Positions 1 through 23,004 of a DNA stretch of 24,091 nt are shown here, one piece after another (the first letter of the stretch is position 1; each line of letters starts with the position of its first letter). Made by a program: the position numbers and the translations under genes. The notes under the pieces were generated by a model that saw nothing but the letters and a program-made list of their open reading frames with translations, was not told the DNA's origin and made no database searches. Source of the stretch: an uncultured Sandaracinaceae bacterium (GTDB taxonomy: Bacteria > Myxococcota_A > Polyangia > Polyangiales > Houyiibacteriaceae); NCBI GenBank assembly GCA_964534585.1, contig CAZHPJ010000001.1, positions 1 through 24,091 of the forward strand, in the 5' to 3' direction.

Positions 1-126
1 GCCGCCCGTGCCGCCCACGCCGCCCGTGCCGCCCACGCCGCCTTCGCCGCCCGTACCGCCTTCGCCGCCGATGCCGCCTTCGCCGCCCGCGCCGCCTTCG
101 CCGCCCGTGCCGCCCGTGCCGCCGTC
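1..126 (-). repeat. Coding low-complexity tandem repeat (9-bp and 18-bp units) encoding GGT/GGV/GGE/GGA
   Basis: Repeated gccgcccgt / gccgcccac / gccgccttc units on the + strand, in frame with the 1-816 lipoprotein. Confidence 0.9.
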
Positions 127-816
127 ACCGTCGACGCAAGTGACGTCGATCGTGTGGTCGCACTGGCAGTATTCGAAGCCGTCGTCGGAGACCGTGATGG
201 TGATCGTCTGCTCGCCGACCTCCTCACAGGTGAAGGTCGTTATCGGCACGGTGGGGTTCGCGAACGAGCCGCCAGTTCCGGTCCACCGGTACTCGATTTC
301 GTCCCCCTCGAGGTCCACAGCTATCGCATACACGTCGATCTGATGGCCCACCGAAGTTTGGAGAGGAGCGACCACCATTTTGATGAGCTCCGTACAAAAA
401 TTGAACTTCCCATTGACGCGTACCCCACCGAGCTCCTGCGGAGGCTTACAGTGGAGCATCACAGCCACCTCGGTCACCTGACCCACGGTGACATTGAAAT
501 TGGCCGAGCCCGAGCAAGACGTCTCACCGTCGGTGGACGTCGCGGTCAGCATGACGGTGTAGTTCATGCCGCCGGGGATGCCGTAGATCTCGACCGACGC
601 TGTCGCCCCGGGGTTGCTGGTGTTGATCGAGCCGACGATTGGCTCGATGTCGTTCCCTGTGACGGAGTAACTGACCTCGTCGATCTCGGTACCGTCGGTC
701 AGCTCGAGCTCGACGGTAAGGTCGCCTGAGGGGCCTGTGTCAGCTGCACATCCTGCGAAAGCAAGGGCGCCAAAGAGCCAGCCAACTAGCCAGCGCGTGG
801 GGATCCATGTGGGCAT
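1..816 (-). CDS. Predicted lipoprotein with Cys-containing beta-rich region and Gly-rich (GGx) linker; 3' end lies beyond the window
   Basis: Not in the ORF track because no stop is reached. ATG at 816 with GGAGA SD (825-821). My translation: MPTWIPTRWLVGWLFGALAFAG-C-AADTGPSGDLTVELELTDGTEIDEVSYSV...TFTCEEVGEQTITITVSDDGFEYCQCDHTIDVTCVDGDGGTGGTGGEGG. Lipobox AFAG-C; frame open to base 1. Confidence 0.85.
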   Translation of the reverse strand, partial: MPTWIPTRWLVGWLFGALAFAGCAADTGPSGDLTVELELTDGTEIDEVSYSVTGNDIEPIVGSINTSNPGATASVEIYGIPGGMNYTVMLTATSTDGETSCSGSANFNVTVGQVTEVAVMLHCKPPQELGGVRVNGKFNFCTELIKMVVAPLQTSVGHQIDVYAIAVDLEGDEIEYRWTGTGGSFANPTVPITTFTCEEVGEQTITITVSDDGFEYCQCDHTIDVTCVDGDGGTGGTGGEGGAGGEGGIGGEGGTGGEGGVGGTGGVGGTGG

Positions 817-5888: not shown

Positions 5889-6791
5889 CTACAGATGCGG
5901 GGACGGCAGTGCTTCATCGAGGAAGGTCAATTGGGCGGCGATGCTCTTGTTGAACCAGTCACCGGTGTAGGGGGCGAAGTGGGGGCACTCGAGCTCGACG
6001 AGGCGCCCGCTCGGGATGAGCTTCGCAGCCTTGCGCACCGCCTCGATCGGGATGAGCGCGTCCTCGGTGGCGCCGACGAGGAGGGTCGGGACGGTGATCT
6101 TCGAAACCTCCCGGATGGGGCGGTAGAAAGGAAAAGTGAGCGCGATGCGGGCGGCGCACCGGTTGTCAAACGGTGCGCCTGGCGGGAGCAACGCCATGAC
6201 CCCGTCCCAGGCGTCTTCTGTGTTCATGATTGCGAGCTCGCCAGGGCGGCCCACAGTCGCAACGTAGTAGGGGTCCCGGAACGTCGCGGCGCGAAGCGCG
6301 TCTCGCACGCCCGCGGCGGTCAACTTCAGCAGGTGAGCCAGCCCACTGGCATCTCCCGCCAAGGAAGCCATCGCATCGACGTGCGGCACGTGCGCAATGA
6401 CCGCCGCGCACCGAACCCCGCGTGACGCCATCGTGAGCACGTGCCCACCGCCGAGCGATGTGCCCCAAAGAACCAATTGTTTCGGGTCGATCTCGGAGAA
6501 CACTCGAACGTGCTCGACCGCGGTTTCAAAATCTTCGATGTGCCGGCGGGGGCTCACGAGCCTCCGTGGCTCCCCGTCGCTCTCGCCGAAACCCCGATAG
6601 TCGAACAGGAACGACGCGAAGCCTGCCTGCGAGAACCGTTCGGCGAACGAGGGAAGGGCCCAGGACCGTTCGGCGCCGAAGCCGTGACCCATGACGATGA
6701 CCGGCGGCCGCAAGATGCCATCTGGCAAATAGAGCGTGCCAGCGCATCGTACGCCTTGGCTCGAGAAGTTTCGATCGACGCGAGTGGTCAA
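5889..6791 (-). CDS. Alpha/beta-fold serine hydrolase
   Basis: [18 protein letters not shown], nucleophile elbow WGTSLGGG, late CPHF His. Start reassigned to TTG 6791 (GGGAG SD), overlapping the aqpZ stop (TTGA). Confidence 0.88.
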
Positions 6792-7483
6792 TCGCCGCTC
6801 CCGGCGACCAGCGGATACACTATGCCGGCAATCGCGCCGCCGATGACCGGGGCGACCCAAAAGAGCCATAGCTGTTGCAGCGCCCAGGCGTCCGCAAAGA
6901 GGGCCGTGCCGGTGCTCCGCGCGGGGTTGACCGAGAGGTTGTCGACCGGGATTCCGATCAAGTGGATCAAGGTCAACCCGAGGCCGATCGCGACCGGCGC
7001 AAGAGCTGCCGGCGCGCGCTTGTCGGTCGCGCCGAGGATGATGAAGAGGAACATGAACGTGAGGACGACCTCCGACGTGAGGACGGCGTAGATCGAGTAA
7101 CCCCCTGGCGAGTGCTCGCCGAAGCCGTTCGACGCGAAGCCGCCCGCTACGAAACCATCCTGGCCGGAGGCGATGGAGTAGAGCACGGCTGCACCCGCAA
7201 TCCCGCCGAGGACTTGCGCGATGATGTATGGGACGAGCTCGGACGCCGGGAAGCGCTTGCCCACGAAGAGGCCTACCGAGACGGCCGGGTTGAGGTGACA
7301 GCCCGAGATGTGCCCGATGGCATACGCCATCGTCAGGACGGTGAGACCAAACGCGAGCGCGACGCCGAGAAAGCCGATCCCGACATCGGGGAAGCCAGCC
7401 GCCAGAACCGCACTCCCGCAGCCACCGAAAACGAGCCAGAACGTGCCCACAAACTCCGCTGCAACCTTGTTTCCAAGCGTCAT
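6788..7483 (-). CDS. aqpZ: Aquaporin Z (231 aa)
   Basis: [34 protein letters not shown] and SVNPARS (both NPA boxes), WLFWVAP. ATG 7483 with AGGAGG SD. Confidence 0.95.
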
Positions 7484-7568: not shown

Positions 7569-8534
7569 TCAAGGCATTCGTTCGCCCGAGGCGAGACAGG
7601 CCCGAATGCCACTCCGGAGCTCGACGGAAGGCTCGAAGCCCATGCGCTGGGCGCGACTGGTGTCGTAGTGATATTGTCGGCCAACGACGCGAACCGCGTA
7701 GCGCGTGAGACGCGGCTCCCGGTGAGTGAGACGAGCCGCCGCCTCCATCGCGCCGGCCACGACCAGCGCCAGGTGATACGGGATGTGCTGGCGCGGGCAC
7801 GGGGCGCCGATCTCATCGGCTACGGTCTCTAGCAACTCACGCCATGTGCAATTCGCTGGATTGGTGAGGTTGTAGACACCGCCTGACGCGGCCGGCTCAG
7901 TGAGCACGAGTGCAAGAAAAGCAGCGACGTCATCCACGTGCACCAGATCGACGGTGTTGTCGCCGCGCCCGATGATGCGGGCTCTGCCAGAACGGAGGTT
8001 CTCGACGAGCTTGGGTAGAAACCTGTCGTCCCCCGGGCCGTAGATCACGCTAGGCCTGACGATGACGAGCTCGAACGCGTGTCGTGCCCGACGGCGCGCG
8101 GCTGCTTCGCTGTCGATCTTGGTGTCGCCGTAAGGGTCGCCTATCTTGCGCACGGGGGCGTCCTCGTCGAGTCGTTCGTTCGCGCGTCGCCCGTACACCG
8201 ACACCGAGCTCATGTGCACGAAGCGCCGAATCCCGGCGCGGCAGGCCTCGGCGGCGACGTTGTCGGTCCCGTCGATGTTCACCCGCCGGCACAGGTCCCA
8301 CTCCTGGCCATAGCCGACGACGCCGGCCAGGTGCACGACGCCGTCGTGATCCGTCATCAACCCCCGGATCGTCTGCGCGATGGTGATGTCCCCGCGAACG
8401 ATCGCAACACCATCGAACGCATCCTCGGACTCCTGCGGCAAGAGCAACGCGGTCACTCGATCGCCTCGATCGAGCAGGGCACGGATTAGGGCTCGTCCGA
8501 CAAAGCCCGTCGCTCCGGTAACGAAGACGCGCAT
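7569..8534 (-). CDS. Extended SDR / NAD-dependent epimerase-dehydratase (3-beta-HSD/OleD-like)
   Basis: [25 protein letters not shown], catalytic YGDTK (YxxxK), [18 protein letters not shown]. Confidence 0.9.
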
Positions 8535-8587
8535 GGCCTAAGCAGCCACCTGCACGGCGTACACGTCGAATCCCGTGGCCTCCTCGG

Positions 8588-11191
8588 TCACCCGCAACAC
8601 GTGCCCCCATGCGCCGTCCGCGCGATGATCTCATCCTTCATGGCTTCGGTGAGATCGTTGAAGTACGCGGAGTAGCCGGATATGCGCACCACGAGATCAC
8701 GATGCTTGTCGGGGTGTGCCTTCGCATCGATGAGCACCGCGGGGTCCATGATCTGCAGCTGCAACTGCATGCCACCTTGAGCGAAATAGCCCCGCACCAG
8801 GCCGTCGATGATCGCGGTGCCTCGATCGCCATCGACGAACGCGGGATGCAATTCCTGGTTCAGCACGCAACCGTTGCTCACCGACGCAACCCGCGCGGCG
8901 GAAGACAGCGCAGCCGTCGGTCCCCGTCGCTCGCGCCCCGTACGCGGCGAAATTCCGTTTGCCAGAGGCTCTCCCGCTCGCCGCCCCGACGGCAACGCCC
9001 CCAGCCGGTGTCCAAAACCTTGATGGGTGGTCATGGTCCAGAAGCCGGGCGAGTAGTGGCCGCTCCGCGGATTGCGCCGCTTCGCTACCATCTGTGCGAA
9101 CCGCCTGGACACCCGGGCCACGTGTCGATCTGCATCGTCGGAGTCCTCGCCGTACGTCCCAATGCGATTGAGGAGCCGCGCACGTAGCGTCTCGGACCCC
9201 ACGAAGTCATGGTCGAGCGCTTCGACCAGCGCGGCGAGGGTTACCCGACGCTCGCCGAACACGACTTGCTCGATCGCCGCCAACGAGTCGGCGACGTCCG
9301 CCAGGCCGACACCTTGCAATCCGCTCGTGTTGTAGATCGCTCCCCCGCCATTCACTTCACGCGCAGCGTCGATGCAACCATCGATCATGACCGAGAGCAG
9401 CGGTGTGGGGCGATGACGAGCGTGTGCGCGCTCGATCGCGTTATTTCCATCGGTTGCGTCGGCGATGAGGCGCTCGAGCTGTCGCTCGAACGCGGTGTAG
9501 ACGGCTTCCATCGAAGTCAGGACACTTGGTGCGCCGGTAGCTGGTCCCACTTGCCGGTCGCCGTCACGCCCATTGTGCAGCGCGAGGTGCAGCGCGTAAG
9601 CCATGTTGAGGAAGCCTGCGCCTGCGGCCGGAAACGAACGATAGGGCACGCCCCACTCGGCGCAGCCAACGATGGAATAGTCGCGCGCGTCACGGATCGG
9701 GACACCGGCATCGCGCTGGCTATCGATTACTCGGTCGTCGTTGAACAGTGCCGGAATGCCGCCACCCTTCTTCAGCACCTCGTAGCAGCGCGCGCGAAAC
9801 TCCCGGGGCGTTCCGGCATGCATGCGGACGTGAATGTTTGGTTGGCGAAGGCGCATTTGGTCGTACGCGTCGAGGAACACGTAGGAAAGATCATTGACCG
9901 CATCTATTCCCTCGGGAGTCTGACCACCGAGCGTAATGCCGGATGCAGACGACAACCCGCTGAAAAACTCGGTCGCACGCCCGAAGAACAGAGGTAACAG
10001 CTCCGCCGCCTTTCCGAGGAAGCAGCCGACGAGCTCGACGGCACGCTCACGTGTGAGCCGACCCGCCGCCAGGTCTCGCTCGTAGTAGGGCAAGAGATAT
10101 TGATCCATACGACCGAACGAGACGCCATGCTGAAAGCTCTCCTGATGCACGAGCACGTGGGCGATGAACACACTCTGGAGCGCCTCATGAAACGTCCTTG
10201 CGGGGTGTGCAGGAACCCTCTCGAACAGCTCGGCGAGCTGACGCAGCTCCGCACGGCGCATGGGATCGGCAGCTCGCGTCACTTCGGCGGTTAGAAACGT
10301 CCGCCACCGGTGGCCATAGGCGATGGCCGCTTCGGCAGCGATGGAAGCCGCCTGGAGAAATCTGCGCTGGGATCGCTGCTCGCGGGTCGGTCGGTGACGA
10401 GGCTGTGTCTCGATCTGGCGATCGAGCGCGGCCCTGCGCCGGCGGATGGAGTCGACGATCCCGGCGAAGCCGTGCGTGAGCACGGACGGATAGTCGGGGG
10501 TGACGTGCGAGATCCCTGCGAACTGTGTGAGCACGAACGCGCGCCCGTCCGTGAGCTTGTCGATCAGGTCCGGTCCCGCCGCATAAAGGGGCGTCGTCGC
10601 GAGCACCGAACGGCGGAACCAGTAGGGAAAGATCTCCTGCTCGAGAGCGCGCCGCTGGGCCGGGGTCGTCCTGATCGGATTGTCGTGCCGGCTGCCGAGC
10701 GTATCGAGCTCGGGCAGCAGCAACAGTCCGCCGTAGTCCGGATGCAGTGGAGCGCCGATTCTCTGGGAGCTCGGGTTGCCGACCAGAAGCTCATGGTCGT
10801 ACACCCGCAACTGCATGTGCTCGAGGGTGTGGCGAAGCGCCTTCGCGTGCGCCAGCTGCCAGTCGCTGGGCTGCATCCGGTCGATCCGTTGATACGCGCG
10901 CATCAACGTCGTGTTGAAGCGTGTCTTCCACCGTGGAGCGATCGCGCCGCGCGCCTGATCGCCGAGCCCACGCTGGTAGAGCCGATAGTGCCACCGCTCT
11001 AGCCAGCGCGGGACGCGAGACCGCGTCGTTTGCGCTAGGTATTCGGTCATCAGGGATGCCTTCTCGGTACACAGGTTGTACGGAGCGGCCAGCAAATCTG
11101 CGCGCAACGCGGCGAGGCGCGCGGATGGAGCGGCCGGCGAGACGCCAGTGGGATGGGAGGGGGAGGGACATGCGCTGACGGCTGAAGACAT
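8588..11191 (-). CDS. Glycyl radical enzyme (PFL superfamily, single-Cys type), substrate unknown
   Basis: C-terminal Gly loop LVVRISGYSAYF, Cys loop SIVGCAEW, plus ELLVGN, SFGRMDQYLLPY, ITLGG, RQPN and PSGRRAGEPLANGISP; 867 aa. Confidence 0.92.
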   Translation of the reverse strand: MSSAVSACPSPSHPTGVSPAAPSARLAALRADLLAAPYNLCTEKASLMTEYLAQTTRSRVPRWLERWHYRLYQRGLGDQARGAIAPRWKTRFNTTLMRAYQRIDRMQPSDWQLAHAKALRHTLEHMQLRVYDHELLVGNPSSQRIGAPLHPDYGGLLLLPELDTLGSRHDNPIRTTPAQRRALEQEIFPYWFRRSVLATTPLYAAGPDLIDKLTDGRAFVLTQFAGISHVTPDYPSVLTHGFAGIVDSIRRRRAALDRQIETQPRHRPTREQRSQRRFLQAASIAAEAAIAYGHRWRTFLTAEVTRAADPMRRAELRQLAELFERVPAHPARTFHEALQSVFIAHVLVHQESFQHGVSFGRMDQYLLPYYERDLAAGRLTRERAVELVGCFLGKAAELLPLFFGRATEFFSGLSSASGITLGGQTPEGIDAVNDLSYVFLDAYDQMRLRQPNIHVRMHAGTPREFRARCYEVLKKGGGIPALFNDDRVIDSQRDAGVPIRDARDYSIVGCAEWGVPYRSFPAAGAGFLNMAYALHLALHNGRDGDRQVGPATGAPSVLTSMEAVYTAFERQLERLIADATDGNNAIERAHARHRPTPLLSVMIDGCIDAAREVNGGGAIYNTSGLQGVGLADVADSLAAIEQVVFGERRVTLAALVEALDHDFVGSETLRARLLNRIGTYGEDSDDADRHVARVSRRFAQMVAKRRNPRSGHYSPGFWTMTTHQGFGHRLGALPSGRRAGEPLANGISPRTGRERRGPTAALSSAARVASVSNGCVLNQELHPAFVDGDRGTAIIDGLVRGYFAQGGMQLQLQIMDPAVLIDAKAHPDKHRDLVVRISGYSAYFNDLTEAMKDEIIARTAHGGTCCG

Positions 11192-11203
11192 GGTGGCCCC
11201 TAC

Positions 11204-11884
11204 CTAATTTTCGAGCACGAGGTGCTGTGCTACGCGCACGAGATGATCTTCGAACAGCGTCACCGCGGCCTGCTCCTGTCGCGGCGTTGCGTGCTTTGCC
11301 GGGGCTACTGTGCCCGCCAGTCGCGCCAGCTCGCGCGGCGTGCTGAGGCAGTAGCGCATGCCGAGCGCGATGACCGCCTGGATCGCCATGCGCAGCTCGC
11401 CGACGGGTCGCCCGAGCGGAGCGGCCAGCAGAGTAGACGTGGCTTCGAGAAACGGCACCAAGGCTCGCTCGCGCCACAACTCTTCTAGCTCACCGGTCTC
11501 CACCAGCGTGCGCATGATCAGCTGAAGCAACGGTCGGCGGCGCCTGCCAAAACGCACGCCTTCACGCACCAGCGATTCGACGAGCGTTCGCAGCTCCGCA
11601 GTCGAGACGCTGGCGTCCCGAACCTCGTCAGCAAAGTGATCTAGCAGCGAGGCGAGCGGCGCGAGCTCGCGGGACACGTCATCGAACGCGCGGTCCAGAC
11701 AGGCTCCGTAGAGATCCTGCTTGTTGCCGAAGTGGTGGTTGATCGTCGCCAGGCTGACGCCCGCAGAACTAGCGACGGCCCGCAACGAGGTCCCGTGCAC
11801 ACCGGACCGAGAGAAGTGCTGCGCCGCCGCCTCGAGCAAGCGAGTGCGAGTGCGAGCGGGATCAGCGTTGACCGGACGGGCCAT
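11204..11884 (-). CDS. TetR/AcrR-family transcriptional regulator
   Basis: TRTRLLEAAAQHFSRSGVHGTSLRAVASSAGVSLATINHHFGNKQDLY HTH. Confidence 0.93.
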   Translation of the reverse strand: MARPVNADPARTRTRLLEAAAQHFSRSGVHGTSLRAVASSAGVSLATINHHFGNKQDLYGACLDRAFDDVSRELAPLASLLDHFADEVRDASVSTAELRTLVESLVREGVRFGRRRRPLLQLIMRTLVETGELEELWRERALVPFLEATSTLLAAPLGRPVGELRMAIQAVIALGMRYCLSTPRELARLAGTVAPAKHATPRQEQAAVTLFEDHLVRVAQHLVLEN

Positions 11885-11918
11885 AACCGAATAATACGCT
11901 TGTCCAGTTCTGGGTCAA
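11885..11918 (-). promoter_or_regulatory. Leaderless sigma70-type promoter of tetR, with an imperfect inverted repeat in the spacer
   Basis: TTGACC (11918-11913), 16 bp, TATTAT (11896-11891), then 6 nt to the ATG; no SD. The spacer holds CCAG-TT-CTGG flanked by TTG/CAA. Confidence 0.6.
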
Positions 11919-11985
11919 GACAAACCTATATTCCCTCGGCCTGTGGGCTTTCGCGGGAGCTAGGGTGTAAGAAAGGCTGCCGATC

Positions 11986-12978
11986 ATGCGGGTCCCTACC
12001 CACTATCTCAATAGCTTCATCAGCTTTGCCGAAGCCCATGGCGCCTCCCGCCAGGAGCTCTTGAACGAGGTGGGGGTCTCGCAGGAGACGCTCGAAGATC
12101 CGGAGGCACGGATCGAGTACGAGCAATTCAAGCTGCTGATCCAAGGGGCGGTTGCACGGAGCGGAGATCCGGCGCTGGGGATGCGCCTGGCAGGCCAACT
12201 GCCTATCACGACTCATGGCCTCCTCGGATACGCCGCCATGAGCAGCGAGACCCTGAAAGAGGCGTTCTCCTTCGTCACCCGCTTCGTCCCGACCCGCCTT
12301 CCCGTGCTGGTCGCGGAGCTCTCGGTCGACGGGGACATCGCAACGCTCCGCATCGAGGAAGCGGCTGTTCTGGGCGAAGTGCGCGCCATCATCTTGGAGA
12401 CTACCGTCGGTGCCCTCCACGCGACTGCGCGTTTCCTCACTCGCGACGAGTTCGAGTTCGAGGAGCTGCGCTTCCCATACGAGGAGCCGGACTACGTCGA
12501 AGAGTACCGGAAGGCCTTCGATTGCCCGTTGGTGTTCGGTGCAGAGGCGATGGAGATGCGCTTCGCGGCCCAGTTGCTGGAGACGCGGCTTCCGCTTGCA
12601 GACGAGGCTGCAAAGAAGCTGGCGGCGAAACGCTGCGAAGAGGAGCTGGCCGCGATCGAGAGCAGCGATGACCTGGAGCAGCGGATGCGCGTCCAATTGT
12701 TGAAGATGGACCGCCTGGCTCCTAGCTTGGACCACTTGGCGAAGACCTTCGGGCTCTCGCCAAGGACCATGCGCCGGCGACTGCGAAACGCAGGCACCTC
12801 TTACAAGGCGATCCTGAACAGCGTGAGAGAGGAGTTGGCGATCCAATATCTAAGGACGACCCGCCAGACCATCTATCAGATCGCAGATCGTCTGGGTTAC
12901 AGCGATCAGTCCAACTTCGGCCGAGCATTCCGGAGCTGGACGGGAAAGTCGCCCCAGGAATTTCGCGACGCTAAGTAA
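11986..12978 (+). CDS. AraC/XylS-family regulator (long N-terminal ligand domain, OruR/VqsM-like)
   Basis: HGLLGYAAMSSETL and FDCPLVFGA; C-terminal SPRTMRRRL...IADRLGYSDQSNFGRAFRSWTGKSPQEFR. Confidence 0.94.
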   Translation: MRVPTHYLNSFISFAEAHGASRQELLNEVGVSQETLEDPEARIEYEQFKLLIQGAVARSGDPALGMRLAGQLPITTHGLLGYAAMSSETLKEAFSFVTRFVPTRLPVLVAELSVDGDIATLRIEEAAVLGEVRAIILETTVGALHATARFLTRDEFEFEELRFPYEEPDYVEEYRKAFDCPLVFGAEAMEMRFAAQLLETRLPLADEAAKKLAAKRCEEELAAIESSDDLEQRMRVQLLKMDRLAPSLDHLAKTFGLSPRTMRRRLRNAGTSYKAILNSVREELAIQYLRTTRQTIYQIADRLGYSDQSNFGRAFRSWTGKSPQEFRDAK

Positions 12979-12984
12979 CGGCGC

Positions 12985-14178
12985 TTACGCCTGAGCGACG
13001 GGTTGCCCGTTGCCCTGTGTCGATTTGCGCTGCCGTTTCAGACCGAAAACCTCCGCCTCGATCTCGAGCTCTTGCTCACCACGCGTCGTCTCGGCCTGCA
13101 GATAGTCTTTCTTCGTATGGTCGACGCGGGTGTAGCTCGCAACGGCATTGAACGCCGCGTTCAACACCGCCGAGAGCGCGGACGTGGAGATGGGGAATGA
13201 GAAACCGACACGATCCGACAGGTGGAAGACCTTGCGGGCGGTGGCTCCCGCGAAGTCGAAGGCGTCGATTCCGAGCTCGGCGAGATCCTCTTCGGCGAAG
13301 GCCACCGCGGGGACGAGCGGCAGGATGAGGCTCAACCGGTGAGCCCGGGCGAAGGGGTTCCTCTTCTGCCACGCGGTCAGTGGAAATTCCTTGAGATAGT
13401 TCGACGGCAGCGCGGTGTGTCGCGATTCGTCCCGGTGAAACAGCCGCAAGACCTCGAGGCCAGGCAGCGTGCTCATCATTCCGAACAGGCCTAGTGCGAA
13501 TCCCTCTACCACCACGTTCATGGCGAAGAACTTTTCGACTCCCTTCGATTTGAAGCCGCGTTCGAGCAACAGGTACTCCCAGATGGGCATCCGCGGAATC
13601 TCGCACTCGAAGGCTTGGAGCAGCTCGCGCAGAACGACGAAGTGCTTCGCTTCCTCTAGGACCTGCATCGTGAGCGCACCACGCGCCCCGGTACTCTTGA
13701 CCTCGTTCAGCAGCTCCGTAGAGACGAGCCAGGCGTAGGCCTCGCCGTGCCCGATGAGGGAGAGCACGTTGACGATCGCCTGCCGTTCACGTTCCGTGTA
13801 CTCGCTCATGATCTTGTCGCGGAACTCCTGGCTGCGAACCCGCTTGAGCTCCCGCAGCTCGTCCCGGTCCATGGACTTCTCAGCCATGCTCAGGAGGGTG
13901 AGCTCCTCCATCGTGCAGTCGCGGAAGTCGAGCCAGGGAGCCTGCTCCTCGGCCTTCCAGAGCAGGCGCATGCTCTTGTCGTAGTGCTTCTTGCGGAGCT
14001 GATCCTTGGCGCCGCCGTTGAACTCGTAGTGGATATCGTCGTAGTCGCCCTTGCGGCCCCCGAGATGGAGACGCCCCATCACCCCGTCGTAGCCTCGGAC
14101 TACGCTATTTACGACCTCTTCGACGCGGCGCTGGATCTTCGCGCTTTGCGGGTTGAGCTCGATCTTCTCGAATTCCAT
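12985..14178 (-). CDS. Ferritin-like diiron-carboxylate protein of unknown function
   Basis: Ligand pattern E146 / E176xxH179 / E225 / E251xxH254; ATG with GGAGG SD. Confidence 0.8.
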   Translation of the reverse strand: MEFEKIELNPQSAKIQRRVEEVVNSVVRGYDGVMGRLHLGGRKGDYDDIHYEFNGGAKDQLRKKHYDKSMRLLWKAEEQAPWLDFRDCTMEELTLLSMAEKSMDRDELRELKRVRSQEFRDKIMSEYTERERQAIVNVLSLIGHGEAYAWLVSTELLNEVKSTGARGALTMQVLEEAKHFVVLRELLQAFECEIPRMPIWEYLLLERGFKSKGVEKFFAMNVVVEGFALGLFGMMSTLPGLEVLRLFHRDESRHTALPSNYLKEFPLTAWQKRNPFARAHRLSLILPLVPAVAFAEEDLAELGIDAFDFAGATARKVFHLSDRVGFSFPISTSALSAVLNAAFNAVASYTRVDHTKKDYLQAETTRGEQELEIEAEVFGLKRQRKSTQGNGQPVAQA

Positions 14179-14274
14179 GGGCGTCCTCCGTGCACTTCGA
14201 CGCCGAGGTCGTCTCGGGCCTCTCCTGCTCTACTCGCAGCTTGCTCTCCAGGAAGTCGGATGCACAGGTGGAAG

Positions 14275-14302
14275 CCGGACAACGATTGGTCATTTCCGGC
14301 CA
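14275..14302 (-). promoter_or_regulatory. Candidate AraC-family tandem site (21-bp period)
   Basis: Minus strand TGGCCGG...TGTCCGG; the two heptamers (14302-14296 and 14281-14275) are 21 bp apart, upstream of the ferritin-like gene. Confidence 0.3.
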
Positions 14303-14380
14303 CAGCCGCCCTGCGGTCGGCCGCACCGCCTCCAGCGGAATCCTCGCGTCAGACGGGCGCTGCGCGCTACGATTGCGGCC

Positions 14381-16222
14381 GTGACTCACACGCGCAGGCG
14401 CGTCAGCCGACTCATTCGCGACGCGATCGCCCGTTTCGAGCTCGACCTGACCGATATGACCGTTCTGACCGAGGCGGCCACGGGCTACTACGCGTCAACG
14501 CCAGTCATTGCGGCGCTGGCCGGAGCCAAACGGGTGCTCGCGCTTGGACGGGACTCCCGATACGGGACTTTGGCCGAGGTGGAACGCTCCATTCGTTCCG
14601 TCGCAACGGAGCTTGGTGCCTTGGCTCCGATCGAAATCCTCCATGATCGATCCGACTCGATCATCGCCGGAACGGACATCGTCACGAACCTCGGCTTTGT
14701 GAGGCCCATCGACGAACCACTACTGTCCAAGTTGGGATCACAAGCTGTCGTCTCACTGATGTGGGAGACGTGGGAACACCGGCCGGAGGAAGTCGATCGA
14801 GACGCTTGCACACGCCTGGGCATTGCGATCCTCGGAACCGACGAGAACGACGAACGGTTGCGGACGCTAGACTATACCGGTCTGATTGCGGCCAAGCTTC
14901 TTTTGCAGCTCGACGTGGAGCTGCTGCGCTCGCGCGTTGCGTTGATCGGTAGCGGGGACTTCGCACGCAGCGTCATCGACAAGCTTGGAGGCCTTGGCGC
15001 ACAGGTCGACTGGATCGATGAAAGAGACCTCGAAGGAAAGGCCGCAACCGAGGTGCTCGAGTCGGCCGACGCCCTCGTGATCGCGATGGCCACGGGCCGA
15101 GAAACCTTGATTGGCGAATCTGGAGTTTTGAGCGCCGAGCAACTCGCACGGCTGAACCCTGACCTAGCGGTCGCCCACATCGCGGGCGGAGTCGATCGGG
15201 ACGCACTGGCAAGACATGGCCTTCGCTGCATGCCTGAGCGTTTTGCGGCCCCCCCACACATGAGCGCGGCCACGGATTATCTCGGACCGAAGCCGGTCAT
15301 CGATCTCCACACGGCGGGCTTGAAGGTCGGCGAGGCGCTCGCTCGTGCCCGCCGCGCAGGAATGGATGCCGAGCAAGCGCAGACCCACGTGCTCGAGCAC
15401 TCGCCGCTCGCGATGGCCTTTGACCTGCCTCCGCGCACGCCTCACCCGGCCGATGCGTTGCGTGCCCGAATACCCCGGCTCCGAGCAATGGTCTGTCTGA
15501 CGATCGACATCGACTGGGCCCCCGACTTCATCATCGACTACGTGCGGGAAACGTTGATCGAACGCGGCGTGCGCGCGACGTTCTTCATAACCCACGAGAG
15601 CCCCGCGTTGCGGCGATTGAAAGATCGCCCCGACCTATTCGAGCTCGGCATCCACCCTAATTTCTTGCCCGGGTCCACCCAAGGCAAGAGCATCGGCGGT
15701 GTACTCGAGCACTGCATGGCTTTGGCCCCGTCGGCGACCAGCATGAGGACGCACTGCCTGCATCAATCGACACCGATTCTTCAGCAAGTGATCACAGATA
15801 CGCCAATCGATACCGATGTCTCTCTACTCATGTCAGCGATTCGACCCCTCACGCCATTCGAGCACCGCTACGGCGACGGCTCGTTGCTGCGCATCCCCTA
15901 CGGTTGGGAGGATACGTTCTCCATGGAGTCTCGGGACATGAGTCGCCCCCCGATCGATCCAGCCTCCACCGGCCTGCAGGTGCTGGCGTTTCATCCGATC
16001 CACATCTACCTCAACTCCGCCTCGATGGATGACTACACCCGACTCAAGGCGCGAGTTGGTGATCTTGCAAAGGCCGGCATCGCCGAAGTCGACGAAGTAG
16101 TCCGGCAGGGCTTCGGCATCCGCTCGCGCTTCTTACACGTGGTCCGTCAATTGCAGGCCAGCGGTCGGTCTACCATGATTCGCGACGTCCGTCCGCACCT
16201 CCTACCGAGCCCGCCATCATGA
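14381..16222 (+). CDS. Fusion protein: divergent D-2-hydroxyacid-dehydrogenase-like Rossmann region plus WbmS-like polysaccharide deacetylase (NodB-type) domain
   Basis: N-part: DACTRLGIAILGTDE and RVALIGSGDFARSV, resembling the 2-HADH hinge and NAD loop. C-part from M at 15488: LTIDIDWAPD, ATFFITH, ELGIHPNF, SMRTHCLHQS, LAFHPIHIYLN. Start reassigned to GTG 14381, because the track's 14153 overlaps the divergent gene. Confidence 0.72.
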   Translation: MTHTRRRVSRLIRDAIARFELDLTDMTVLTEAATGYYASTPVIAALAGAKRVLALGRDSRYGTLAEVERSIRSVATELGALAPIEILHDRSDSIIAGTDIVTNLGFVRPIDEPLLSKLGSQAVVSLMWETWEHRPEEVDRDACTRLGIAILGTDENDERLRTLDYTGLIAAKLLLQLDVELLRSRVALIGSGDFARSVIDKLGGLGAQVDWIDERDLEGKAATEVLESADALVIAMATGRETLIGESGVLSAEQLARLNPDLAVAHIAGGVDRDALARHGLRCMPERFAAPPHMSAATDYLGPKPVIDLHTAGLKVGEALARARRAGMDAEQAQTHVLEHSPLAMAFDLPPRTPHPADALRARIPRLRAMVCLTIDIDWAPDFIIDYVRETLIERGVRATFFITHESPALRRLKDRPDLFELGIHPNFLPGSTQGKSIGGVLEHCMALAPSATSMRTHCLHQSTPILQQVITDTPIDTDVSLLMSAIRPLTPFEHRYGDGSLLRIPYGWEDTFSMESRDMSRPPIDPASTGLQVLAFHPIHIYLNSASMDDYTRLKARVGDLAKAGIAEVDEVVRQGFGIRSRFLHVVRQLQASGRSTMIRDVRPHLLPSPPS

Positions 16223-21153: not shown

Positions 21154-23004
21154 ATGCTAGCCAATGAGATTCTGCTAACGACACCGACCTATCCTTACCC
21201 AACCCTGCCGGCCAATGATTCGTTGACCGACGCGACCGGGCAGCGCTTCACCAAGGGCGACAACGTCTTCACGATGGTCTCCCACACCCATTGCTTCGCC
21301 AATCACATTCTCGCGCAAAACGTGCGGACCCCGGTGGTGGTAATGGAGTACCCCCGGTGGGACGATTTCAAGGCGGAAGTCGACAAGGGCTATCCGGTGA
21401 TCGGCATCAGCACCTATCCGGTCCACTTGGCCCGGGTACTCGAGATGTGTGAGTACATCCGCAACCGCTCACCAGCGACCAAGATCCTGCTCGGCTCCCA
21501 TGGGGGCATGGCCTTTCGGTCCGTGTACGACAAGGACACGCAACGCAAGTACGTCGACCGCGTCGTGCATGGAGAGGGCGTGCGGTTCTTGCGCCGTTTC
21601 CTCGGGGAGACCGATATCGACCGACCGATCCGCCAGGCCCTGATGCCCAAGGCGGGGGGTGCGCCACCGTTCATGAGCAAGTACCCCGTCGGCAATATTG
21701 CGTTCCTCGTCTCCGGACTGGGTTGCATCGGCGGCTGCGATTTCTGTTCCACTACGGCGCTCTTCGATCAACACCGGACCGAGCTACTTTCCCCCGCCGA
21801 GCTGGTGGAGCACATCCGGCTCTACCACGACCATTTCCCCTCGGTCAGCCAGGTCTTCGTGATCGAAGAAGATCACTTCCGTTACCCCAAGTACCTCGAG
21901 GGCGTCCGCGAGTTGTGGATGGAGCAGCCCAAGATGATGGAGCAACTCGACTGGTTTGCTTTCGGTTCGATCGACTTCATCGGCCGCTACGCCGACAAGT
22001 ATGGATGGGATGCGCTTGCCGAGACCGGGATCGGCACCATCTTCATCGGGGTCGAATCGAAGTTTGCTGGGGAGCACGGCTACAAGAAGCGCAAAAGCGC
22101 GAACGCTCAGGAGGTGTTCCAGAAGCTCCACAGCATAGGCATCCGCACCGTGGGCGCCTGGATGTGTGGCTTCGACTTCCACAACCATGCGAACGTGACG
22201 GAGGACCTGAACTACCTGGTCTCGCTCTATCCGACCTACCAGCAGCTGACCCGGGTTTCGCCGCTCCCCGGCACGGCGTTGTGGGCACGCATGAATGAAG
22301 AGAATCGCGTCCGCGATGTGCCCTGGGAAGACGTACATTTTTGGAGCAGTGCGCTCAAGAACACCAACTTCGAGCCCCATGAAACTCTGAACATCACAGA
22401 GTACGGCTACGATCTCCTGTACCAGACCTGGGGTCCTTCGATTCTCCGGCGATTGGACGTGCAGCTGTCGGGCTACGACTTCTGCCGCCGCTCGCCCAAC
22501 CCGGTCCTGCGACGCCACAAGGCACTCTTCTTCAAACGCCAGTGCGCGATGCTCTGGACGAACCTCTACGGAATGGACCGTTTCGCGCCCAACGGCGTCG
22601 TTCGACGACGGGTCCGCAAGATCGACGAGAAGTACCGCGCGCTGCTCGGCGAACCCACGCCGGTGATGAAGGCCCTTGCGCGACTGATGGATGTCGCGGT
22701 GACGGGCGCGAAGGTGACGGAGTTCTTCGACTCGATGAACCGGCACCCAAAGGAAGAGCCCTATCACCGCTACGTCTACAAGAACAATGGCGAGAGCGAC
22801 AGCGCGATTCCATATCACAAGGAGTGCCCGACGCCCCGCACGCGGGCCGTGCGGCGAGGGATGGCACGGGAAGCACTTCAACGTCGATCGATGGCGATGG
22901 GACTGAAAGCCAGCAAGGTCGTTGGTTGGCGGGACGGCGATCCGGCGATCGACGATTTTTTGGTGAACATGGTGGAGAGTGGTCGAGTGGGGTTCGGCTT
23001 CTAG
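21154..23004 (+). CDS. Radical SAM protein with N-terminal cobalamin-binding-like domain, function unknown
   Basis: CxxxCxxC (GCIGGCDFC); N-terminal Rossmann-like segment (VIGIS...KILLGSHG...VVHGEG); FIGVES, GFDFH and SPLPGTALW, as seen in B12-dependent radical SAM enzymes. Confidence 0.85.
   Translation: MLANEILLTTPTYPYPTLPANDSLTDATGQRFTKGDNVFTMVSHTHCFANHILAQNVRTPVVVMEYPRWDDFKAEVDKGYPVIGISTYPVHLARVLEMCEYIRNRSPATKILLGSHGGMAFRSVYDKDTQRKYVDRVVHGEGVRFLRRFLGETDIDRPIRQALMPKAGGAPPFMSKYPVGNIAFLVSGLGCIGGCDFCSTTALFDQHRTELLSPAELVEHIRLYHDHFPSVSQVFVIEEDHFRYPKYLEGVRELWMEQPKMMEQLDWFAFGSIDFIGRYADKYGWDALAETGIGTIFIGVESKFAGEHGYKKRKSANAQEVFQKLHSIGIRTVGAWMCGFDFHNHANVTEDLNYLVSLYPTYQQLTRVSPLPGTALWARMNEENRVRDVPWEDVHFWSSALKNTNFEPHETLNITEYGYDLLYQTWGPSILRRLDVQLSGYDFCRRSPNPVLRRHKALFFKRQCAMLWTNLYGMDRFAPNGVVRRRVRKIDEKYRALLGEPTPVMKALARLMDVAVTGAKVTEFFDSMNRHPKEEPYHRYVYKNNGESDSAIPYHKECPTPRTRAVRRGMAREALQRRSMAMGLKASKVVGWRDGDPAIDDFLVNMVESGRVGFGF

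Follow-up and report, generated by a model that had tools for sequence, protein, structure and literature searches.

The stretch of DNA analysed here (the window) spans positions 1 to 24,091 of contig CAZHPJ010000001.1 (assembly GCA_964534585.1; 24,091 nucleotides), from a metagenome-assembled genome (MAG) of an uncultured Sandaracinaceae bacterium, and its minus strand encodes a glycyl radical enzyme (GRE) of 867 amino acids, referred to below as GRE P0001 (8588..11191). The first gene of the unit encodes a TetR-family regulator of 226 amino acids (11204..11884, minus strand; PF00440 TetR_N, 51.9 bits) and ends 12 bp ahead of the GRE start. On the other side, a spacer of 53 bp (8535..8587, minus strand) separates the GRE stop from the start of a gene for an extended short-chain dehydrogenase/reductase (SDR) of the 3-beta-hydroxysteroid dehydrogenase (HSD) or NAD-epimerase type, here SDR2 (7569..8534, minus strand; 321 amino acids; PF01370, 141 bits; PF01073, 97 bits). 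A preliminary description, made from the letters of the window alone, had presented the GRE as an enzyme of unassigned type that has no activating enzyme (activase) encoded nearby and that might be activated in trans. Our analysis indicates an intact, oxygen-sensitive enzyme of an uncharacterized clade, whose own activase gene was recently deleted in a shallow lineage and which is most likely served by an activase encoded elsewhere in the genome.

GRE P0001 matched Pfam PF02901 (PFL-like) over positions 26-647 of the 647-position profile (557.8 bits, E 5e-167) and PF01228 (Gly_radical) with 85.6 bits. Its Gly loop, VVRISGYSAYF, matched the superfamily motif RVxG[FWY] and contains the glycyl radical residue G839, which is invariant in the clade alignment (A1). 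The Cys loop, VGCAEWGVP, corresponds to the thiyl Cys loop that the superfamily carries in its ten-stranded barrel; it contains a single Cys, C510, again invariant in A1, with E512 two residues on. C510-A511-E512 matches the CXE motif that defines the GRE eliminases and isomerases (the 1,2-eliminase/isomerase class; PMC13450708), and both its Cys and its Glu are clade-invariant. To judge by these residues, the catalytic apparatus is of the ordinary CXE eliminase type, and the key positions of the enzyme are H229, H355-G356, C510-A511-E512-W513, W718, H723 and G839. The translation of the open reading frame (ORF) and the Pfam matches agree with the preliminary description as to the intact RISGY loop and the single-Cys loop GCAEW, which has no Cys-Cys pair of the pyruvate formate-lyase (PFL) kind. 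That GCAEW is an unusual loop, as was also proposed, we rejected: the clade consensus is GCVEW, of which GCAEW is a V-to-A variant with an ordinary CXE motif, and Ala also occurs at this position in activase-bearing relatives. An AlphaFold2 (AF2) model of GRE P0001 built on 25 clade sequences reached a pLDDT of 86 and a pTM of 0.90.

GRE P0001 belongs to no characterized GRE family, because all NCBIfam equivalog models scored far below their cut-offs and the best solved structures are only 31-34% identical. The 'unassigned type' of the preliminary description therefore holds, and among the families that it had named for comparison, that is, PFL, CutC, HypD, the sulfonate lyase IslA, the glycerol and propanediol dehydratases (GD and PD) and HPAD, none includes the enzyme. 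Scores against cut-offs were 446/1050 for CutC, 494/1100 for HypD, 453/1109 for PflD/YbiW (PRK09983), 313/1100 for IAD and 220/1150 for HPAD, and the two sulfonate lyase models gave 467/1000 (NF048011, HpsG) and 429/1000 (NF048009). PFL itself can be set aside on the basis of the single Cys in the Cys loop of GRE P0001, where no Cys-Cys pair is present, and a TIGR01255 score of 129 against 994. The closest approach was to TIGR01774, the PFL2/glycerol-dehydratase subfamily model, with 649.6, just under the cut-off of 678.2.

By sequence, the best solved relatives were Archaeoglobus fulgidus PFL2 (2F3O, 506 bits), GD (1R8W, 474 bits) and 1,2-propanediol dehydratase (9RCO, 462 bits). Foldseek searches with the AF2 model returned the same proteins as the nearest folds (PD 9rcp/9rco, GD 1r8w and 2f3o), with query-normalized TM-scores (TMq) of 0.85-0.86 at 30-34% identity and target-normalized scores (TMt) of 0.93-0.94 for the GD and PD structures. 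The sulfonate lyases were further off (TMq 0.81 versus 0.85 for the diol dehydratases), and the X-succinate synthases (TMq 0.80-0.82, 22-24% identity) ranked last together with the arylacetate decarboxylase 7E7L. No conserved family of small ORFs that might represent X-succinate synthase subunits emerged from the unbiased clustering of GRE neighbours described below, in which no search was aimed at small subunits.

A. fulgidus PFL2, the function of which is debated between glycerol dehydratase and alkylsuccinate synthase (PMC13450708), shares with GRE P0001 the AGISHV motif with its conserved His, the GCxE Cys loop and the VRxxGxSAYF Gly loop, and its match, the top one among solved structures, covers residues 110-859 (505.8 bits; 34% identity at TMq 0.85 in Foldseek). 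Unlike GRE P0001, PFL2 is archaeal and hyperthermophilic, is without the extra N-terminal segment of ~60 amino acids, and has an Asp at the position of GD D447, where the clade has G524. The B12-independent GD of Clostridium butyricum (1R8W) and the 1,2-propanediol dehydratases (Roseburia inulinivorans 5I2A/5I2G; 9RCO-9RCR), which are the nearest folds (TMq 0.85-0.86), resemble GRE P0001 in a downstream NAD(P) reductase partner analogous to DhaT; with GD it also shares the CXE motif (GD C433/E435 corresponding to C510/E512) and the acid His (GD H164 corresponding to H229). It differs from both in an identity of only 30-32%, in its regulation by a TetR-type protein, in the lack of microcompartment genes and in the lack of an activase at this locus. 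The clade-specific N-terminal 115 residues of GRE P0001 had no Pfam match. At the other end of the protein, most clade members carry a short Cys-containing tail after the usual ARTxH, which was not seen in the aligned GD, PFL2 and PD chains or in HpsG-type sequences; GRE P0001 ends in TCCG (window 8591-8611), and ACCA, SC, SCLC and TCCT occur elsewhere.

When one genome per species was scanned, 575 relatives came to light, and a word-index search listed 120 homologues at 52-91% identity. Clade members (at least 45% identity) were present in MAGs of Myxococcota, Desulfobacterota, Binatia, Schekmanbacteria and Dehalococcoidia and in the cultured Enhygromyxa salina, Plesiocystis pacifica SIR-1 and Nannocystaceae ST9; the relatives at 89-91% identity are labelled as Myxococcota or 'Deltaproteobacteria' MAGs. 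The clade was monophyletic in a tree of 161 sequences, and it is a large, uncharacterized, diol-dehydratase-like branch of the CXE (1,2-eliminase/isomerase) group. None of the 10 representatives of the groups nearest to it on the tree reached an NCBIfam equivalog cut-off from which a function might be taken, an ESM Atlas feature search returned generic GRE clusters only, and a literature search for GREs in Myxococcota, Enhygromyxa or Dehalococcoidia with dsrAB found nothing relevant to the clade. In E. salina (L040, L047), P. pacifica SIR-1 (L066) and Nannocystaceae ST9 (L046), the activase gene lies directly downstream of the clade GRE gene; these cultured marine myxobacteria are described as aerobes. 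E. salina encodes a second GRE (G003:C180), and no activase match was found elsewhere in its genome.

A whole-genome search with the activase model TIGR02494 gave no match on the contig carrying the window (C1) at E<=0.01, and tblastn with the cognate activase of relatives found nothing in the window. An activase remnant was also sought in the 53-bp spacer and elsewhere in the window, and none was found. For the radical SAM gene at 21154, which does not encode a GRE activase, the only matches were weak ones to the B12-binding class (BchE, HpnJ and PhpK; 23 bits with Pfam Radical_SAM). On both counts, the absence of a GRE activase from the window and the B12 type of this radical SAM gene, the preliminary description was correct. 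The same absence does not, as that description had it, mark a special type of GRE. When all ORFs within 6 kb of the GRE were clustered without prior assumptions in 52 clade loci, the recurrent neighbours were the activase (35 loci), SDR2 (22), SDR1 (14) and TetR (11), the rest being lineage-specific; the dedicated adjacent activase of the superfamily, which is a feature of context rather than of the protein, is thus found in 35/52 loci and missing from the window.

The full layout is preserved in the 78% identical relative at locus L013, in which the GRE gene (10001-12544), an activase gene that overlaps its stop (12541-13437), SDR1, a classical SDR (13447-14244), and SDR2, an extended SDR (14248-15195), follow TetR in one string. 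TetR-GRE-activase is also found in L015 and L018, and GRE, activase and both SDRs in L107 and L108. An orthologous TetR gene precedes the GRE in L013 (78%), L016, L019 (89%), L018, L015 and others. By contrast with L013, the activase is absent in all five orthologues at 89-91% identity, and the genes downstream of the GRE differ among them: SDR2 follows directly in L016, as in the window; an aquaporin gene follows directly in L019, with the last GRE codons lost or replaced; unrelated DNA follows in L017; and a convergent metallo-beta-lactamase-fold gene and a LysR gene follow in L096. In the IQ-TREE phylogeny, the activase-less window, L016 and L017 nest inside the activase-bearing L013 and L018 with an SH-aLRT support of 99. 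Because the activase-less group nests within activase-bearing relatives and the 78% relative keeps the full layout, the orphan state is a derived, recent deletion of activase and SDR1 in a shallow lineage and not the hallmark of a new type; the 53-bp spacer, where activase and SDR1 sit in relatives, is the deletion junction. The preliminary description had itself named two findings that would undo its proposal, and they came out differently. An activase adjacent or fused in relatives and lost only here is what the 35/52 loci, the fused proteins P0126 and P0177 and the nesting at SH-aLRT 99 amount to, whereas placement inside a characterized GRE clade did not occur, the clade being uncharacterized.

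SDR2 is the sole partner enzyme of the ancestral operon that remains in the window, where it is 78% identical to the SDR2 of L013. Its best NCBIfam matches were OleD-, HpnA- and SdmB-like and all under cut-off, and searches of the PDB with SDR1 and SDR2 returned generic matches only (clavaldehyde dehydrogenase, 11-beta-HSD1, MoeE5 and sterol-4-alpha-carboxylate 3-dehydrogenase).

The GRE gene is still maintained by purifying selection after the loss of its activase. Among the activase-less orthologues, the ratio of nonsynonymous to synonymous substitution rates (dN/dS) of the GRE was 0.11-0.17 at a dS of 0.33-0.45, in line with the values of its neighbours TetR (0.13-0.18) and SDR2 (0.11-0.13), and comparisons with L013 gave likewise low values. 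In addition, H229, H355, G356, C510, E512, W513, W718, H723 and G839 were kept in every copy in which the residue was covered. Such low dN/dS together with the retention of all catalytic residues would not be expected of a stranded enzyme that can no longer be activated.

We also assessed the other GRE systems of the source MAG (3.27 Mb; 632 contigs, median 4 kb; 87.24% complete, 1.4% contamination). The genome search for activases that the preliminary description had proposed yielded three with TIGR02494, on contigs C418 (348 bits), C240 (260 bits) and C327 (83 + 89 bits in two pieces), and none on C1. The activase of C418 (815-1723) is HpsH-like, with 412 bits and a cut-off of 430, and its gene closely follows that of an HpsG-type sulfopropanediol GRE, the two pieces of which lie on C327 (2155-3912) and C418 (3-770) and score 719 + 386 bits (cut-off 1000). 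This GRE/activase pair is present in both sister MAGs (GRE 90% and activase 78-86% identical; 1110 bits in G001), and the Myxococcota lineage probably degrades 2,3-dihydroxypropane-1-sulfonate (DHPS) anaerobically. An AraC regulator is encoded upstream of the HpsG-type locus. The activase of C240 (3506-4420) adjoins a third GRE fragment. In the activase gene of C327 (5-752), the break that had suggested a frameshifted activase pseudogene is a scaffold gap of 10 N flanked by a duplicated 18-mer, and that reading was rejected.

In the sister MAG G002, one uninterrupted frame on contig C241 (L105:1-3021, minus strand; at least 1007 amino acids) encodes both a GRE and an activase. The product is a C-terminal fusion, in which the activase N-terminus (FDVQRFSIHDGPGIRT) follows without a break on a GRE that stops shortly after its Gly loop (…RISGYSAYFVDLDPAKRP…). 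The C327 activase of the source genome (L101) is 91% identical to the activase domain of this protein, and the GRE part has an 86% identical counterpart in G001:C75; the fusion locus is cut at contig ends and incomplete in all three MAGs. The Gly loop of the fusion is LVRISGYSAYF, in which the 9-mer RISGYSAYF is identical to that of GRE P0001, and the other Gly loops in the genome are RVAGYSAYF (HpsG-type) and KVSGYSACF (C240). The fusion is unlike those of P0126 and P0177, two proteins of a neighbouring tree group in which the activase is fused N-terminal to the GRE (activase parts 1-360 and 1-395; total lengths 1095 and 1136 amino acids) and Radical_SAM and Fer4 domains stand ahead of the PFL-like domain. 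Another GRE representative, P0170 (1129 amino acids), has an extra partial PFL-like segment at 105-313 (profile 161-380) before the full domain, which looks like an internal partial duplication.

An orthologue of the clade activase was not found in the source genome, in which the best matches were 37-45% identical as against 55-60% between clade activases, nor was one found in the sister MAGs G001 and G002. Given the purifying selection that followed the loss and the presence of three other activases in the genome, activation in trans by an activase encoded elsewhere appears to be the likeliest state, as the preliminary description had supposed. Wherever an activase is known to cross-react with a further GRE (PflA on TdcE, the HPAD activases, and the IBSS activase on BSS), the Gly loops are identical or nearly so (PMC13450708). 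Since the Gly loop of the fusion is identical to that of GRE P0001, as in those cases, we would rank the fusion-type activase of C327 first among the candidates, followed by the HpsH-like activase of C418 and then that of C240. The activation of E. coli TdcE and GrcA by PflA offers a parallel, in that a GRE with no activase gene of its own beside it relies on that of another GRE with an identical Gly loop. However, TdcE and PFL are close paralogues, whereas the two GREs considered here are only 38% identical and the candidate activase is part of a fusion with its own GRE.

With regard to the reaction, E512 and H229 are invariant in the clade, and the GD equivalent of H229, His164, is thought to protonate the leaving hydroxyl (PMC13450708). 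The residues with which GD contacts its small diol are replaced, which sets GRE P0001 apart from that family: in the alignment to GD, S282, Y339, D447 and Y640 correspond to G356, A416, G524 and W718, and because of these replacements the pocket is predicted to be larger than in GD. The anchor of the sulfonate lyases, which consists of two Arg and a Gln (HpsG R183, Q187 and R672), is likewise absent, the aligned residues being I227 and G716 and the strand 715-723 having no Arg; the counterparts of R183 and R672 are here the two Arg positions of the aligned HpsG-type sequence, taken as those of published HpsG. The partners across the clade are mostly TetR and two SDRs, with a XylR-type sigma-54 activator instead of TetR in Desulfobacteraceae. 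From these residues and partners, the chemistry is probably a 1,2-elimination, most likely a dehydration, of a substrate bulkier than glycerol.

In neighbouring GRE lineages (P0136, P0142, P0230, P0247 and P0192), the N-terminal 200-260 amino acids form an SCP2 or alkyl-sulfatase-C-type lipid-binding domain, with SCP2 scores of 34.5 bits in P0136, 31 bits in P0142 and 21.9 bits in P0230. The gene for P0230 adjoins genes for an epimerase-type SDR, an acyl-CoA-type AMP-ligase, a 4HBT thioesterase and an activase.

We therefore propose, with a probability of roughly 0.6, that GRE P0001 is a functional member of an uncharacterized CXE clade that lost its cognate activase by deletion, is activated in trans and carries out an elimination on a substrate bulkier than that of GD. 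The ancestral unit would have been TetR-GRE-activase-SDR1-SDR2. The activase would have been deleted in a shallow lineage of marine-sediment Myxococcota, which comprises the window and four orthologues at 89-91% identity, together with SDR1 wherever downstream DNA is available, leaving TetR-GRE and a variable set of downstream genes, which in the window are SDR2 and an aquaporin gene. A non-cognate activase, for which C327 is the best candidate, would install the glycyl radical on G839 in trans; G839 would then generate a thiyl radical on C510, which would abstract a hydrogen from the hydroxyl-bearing carbon of the substrate. E512 would deprotonate the hydroxyl and the group on the adjacent carbon would leave, with H229 as the likely acid, to give a carbonyl compound that SDR2 might reduce; alternatively, SDR2 might make the alcohol substrate. 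Because of the larger predicted pocket and the SCP2 lipid-binding domains of sister lineages, the substrate would probably be a vicinal diol or a beta-substituted alcohol, bulkier than glycerol and perhaps greasy. A more specific version of the proposal, in which a facultatively anaerobic lineage dropped its dedicated activase and borrows the activase domain of the fusion paralogue, and in which the reaction is a 1,2-elimination not described before, with a hydroxylated substrate that is bulky or lipid-like, is tentative and on balance doubtful.

Several points weigh against the proposal of trans-activation and bulky-substrate elimination. The pocket size was read from a pairwise sequence alignment to GD and residue numbers from the literature, and the active-site loops of the AF2 model are at low pLDDT (411-413, 511-514). 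Activase cross-reactivity between GREs that are only 33-38% identical is poorly documented (PMC13450708). The GRE part of the fusion was not assembled in the source genome, and we infer the fusion there from the sister MAG. At 87% completeness and 632 contigs, the cognate activase could have moved to a region that the assembly does not cover. Finally, two sulfite-linked contexts hint at sulfite release rather than dehydration. In Dehalococcoidia, the GRE gene is divergent from a dsrA-dsrB-dsrD-like-dsrN-dsrC-dsrM-dsrK string (L106:2824-9782 + 14513-15814), and in Desulfobacteraceae, it is followed by genes for a membrane protein with 10-12 transmembrane segments and a TauE/SafE-family exporter. 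Downstream in L106 lie genes for an NF038143 'HYxxLL' protein, a SPASM radical SAM protein and a YeiH-type exporter, with no canonical activase nearby.

Relocation of the cognate activase to the unassembled 13% of the genome, so that an ordinary pair is merely split over two loci, we regard as unlikely. The state of the assembly (87.24% complete, 632 contigs with a median of 4 kb) leaves room for it, and GRE/activase loci in this genome tend to break at contig ends, as on C327, C418 and C240. However, three independently binned MAGs (G000, G001 and G002) are without an activase more than ~50% identical to that of L013, and every activase match in them can be assigned to the HpsH type, the fusion type or another paralogue. 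In addition, SDR1 is missing beside the GRE as well and the downstream genes vary among the five orthologues, which deletions fit better.

It also seems improbable that the clade represents a new type of organosulfonate C-S lyase, which would release sulfite by means of a binding site unlike those of IslA, IseG and HpsG. The dsrABDN-dsrC-dsrMK context of the Dehalococcoidia GRE, near a YeiH-family putative sulfate exporter, and the exporter genes of the Desulfobacteraceae locus would suit such an activity, and the HpsG-type enzyme and activase of the source genome suggest that sulfonates are part of the diet. The known lyases IslA (7KQ3), IseG (5YMR) and HpsG (6LON) also share the CXE eliminase core. 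However, the Arg/Gln/Arg anchor common to all three is missing from GRE P0001 (I227, G716), which scores 467 versus 1000 with NF048011 and is structurally farther from them than from the diol dehydratases (TMq 0.81 versus 0.85). Each sulfite-linked context is moreover limited to one lineage, most of the clade having TetR and SDR partners, and the source genome has no dsrA match. We prefer dehydration because the catalytic residues and the clade-wide partners outweigh the two lineage-specific contexts.

That the GRE is a stranded relic, no longer activatable and on its way to a pseudogene, is very unlikely, for although the loss of activase and SDR1, the further loss of SDR2 in L019 and L096 and the replacement of the last GRE codons in L019 resemble the stepwise erosion of an operon, the frame is intact in all complete orthologues and uninterrupted in both pieces of the G002 copy, which is cut by contig ends, the radical and catalytic residues are all conserved, TetR stays with the GRE wherever upstream DNA is available, and the dN/dS of 0.11-0.17, equal to that of the neighbours, was maintained over a dS of 0.33-0.45 accumulated after the loss.

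Alongside at least four GRE systems, the genome encodes subunit I of a haem-copper oxidase, a combination that fits a facultative or microaerobic sediment bacterium with an anaerobic side metabolism. The anaerobic metabolism that the preliminary description had deduced is therefore real as a capacity, given the further GRE systems, but it is not exclusive, since the oxidase is also encoded. NrdD and DsrA were not found in the genome, which at 87% completeness is weak evidence of their absence.

For the window alone the finding is modest, as the orphan state goes back to a deletion and the catalytic machinery is of a standard kind. The clade as a whole is large and environmentally widespread, and its presence in cultured E. 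salina and P. pacifica brings it within experimental reach. To our knowledge, there are few data in the field on what makes an activase specific, and a GRE that has remained under purifying selection without its own activase through a dS of ~0.4 makes it possible to ask, in a natural setting, whether an identical Gly loop is enough for cross-activation. Radical elimination on alcohols that are not sugars and may be lipid-like is suggested by the conserved partners, TetR and the SDRs, and by the neighbouring lineages with SCP2 fusions, and we know of no characterized GRE that uses this substrate class. Many GRE clades are still without a function (PMC13450708).

Other features of the window lie on either side of the unit. 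The ORFs at 12985-14178 (minus strand, 397 amino acids) and 1-729 (plus strand, 242 amino acids) had no Pfam or NCBIfam match. Just upstream of tetR, a consensus scan found a sigma-70-like promoter match, TTGACC-16-TATTAT (11891..11918, minus strand; 10/12), which, with 3 sites found by the scan versus 1.0 expected, is not evidence of function. Approximately 85 bp after SDR2 lies the gene for an aquaporin Z-type MIP channel of 231 amino acids (6788..7483, minus strand; NF003838, 384.5 bits versus a cut-off of 256), with a visible ribosome-binding site (AGGAGG) and an ATG at 7483; its membership of the unit is uncertain. The aquaporin gene that directly follows the GRE in L019 (92% identity) is its counterpart, and none was found beside the GRE in the other clade loci. 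The channel may be a coincidental neighbour, or, like the diffusion facilitators known in diol-utilization operons, it may admit a substrate that is small and neutral.

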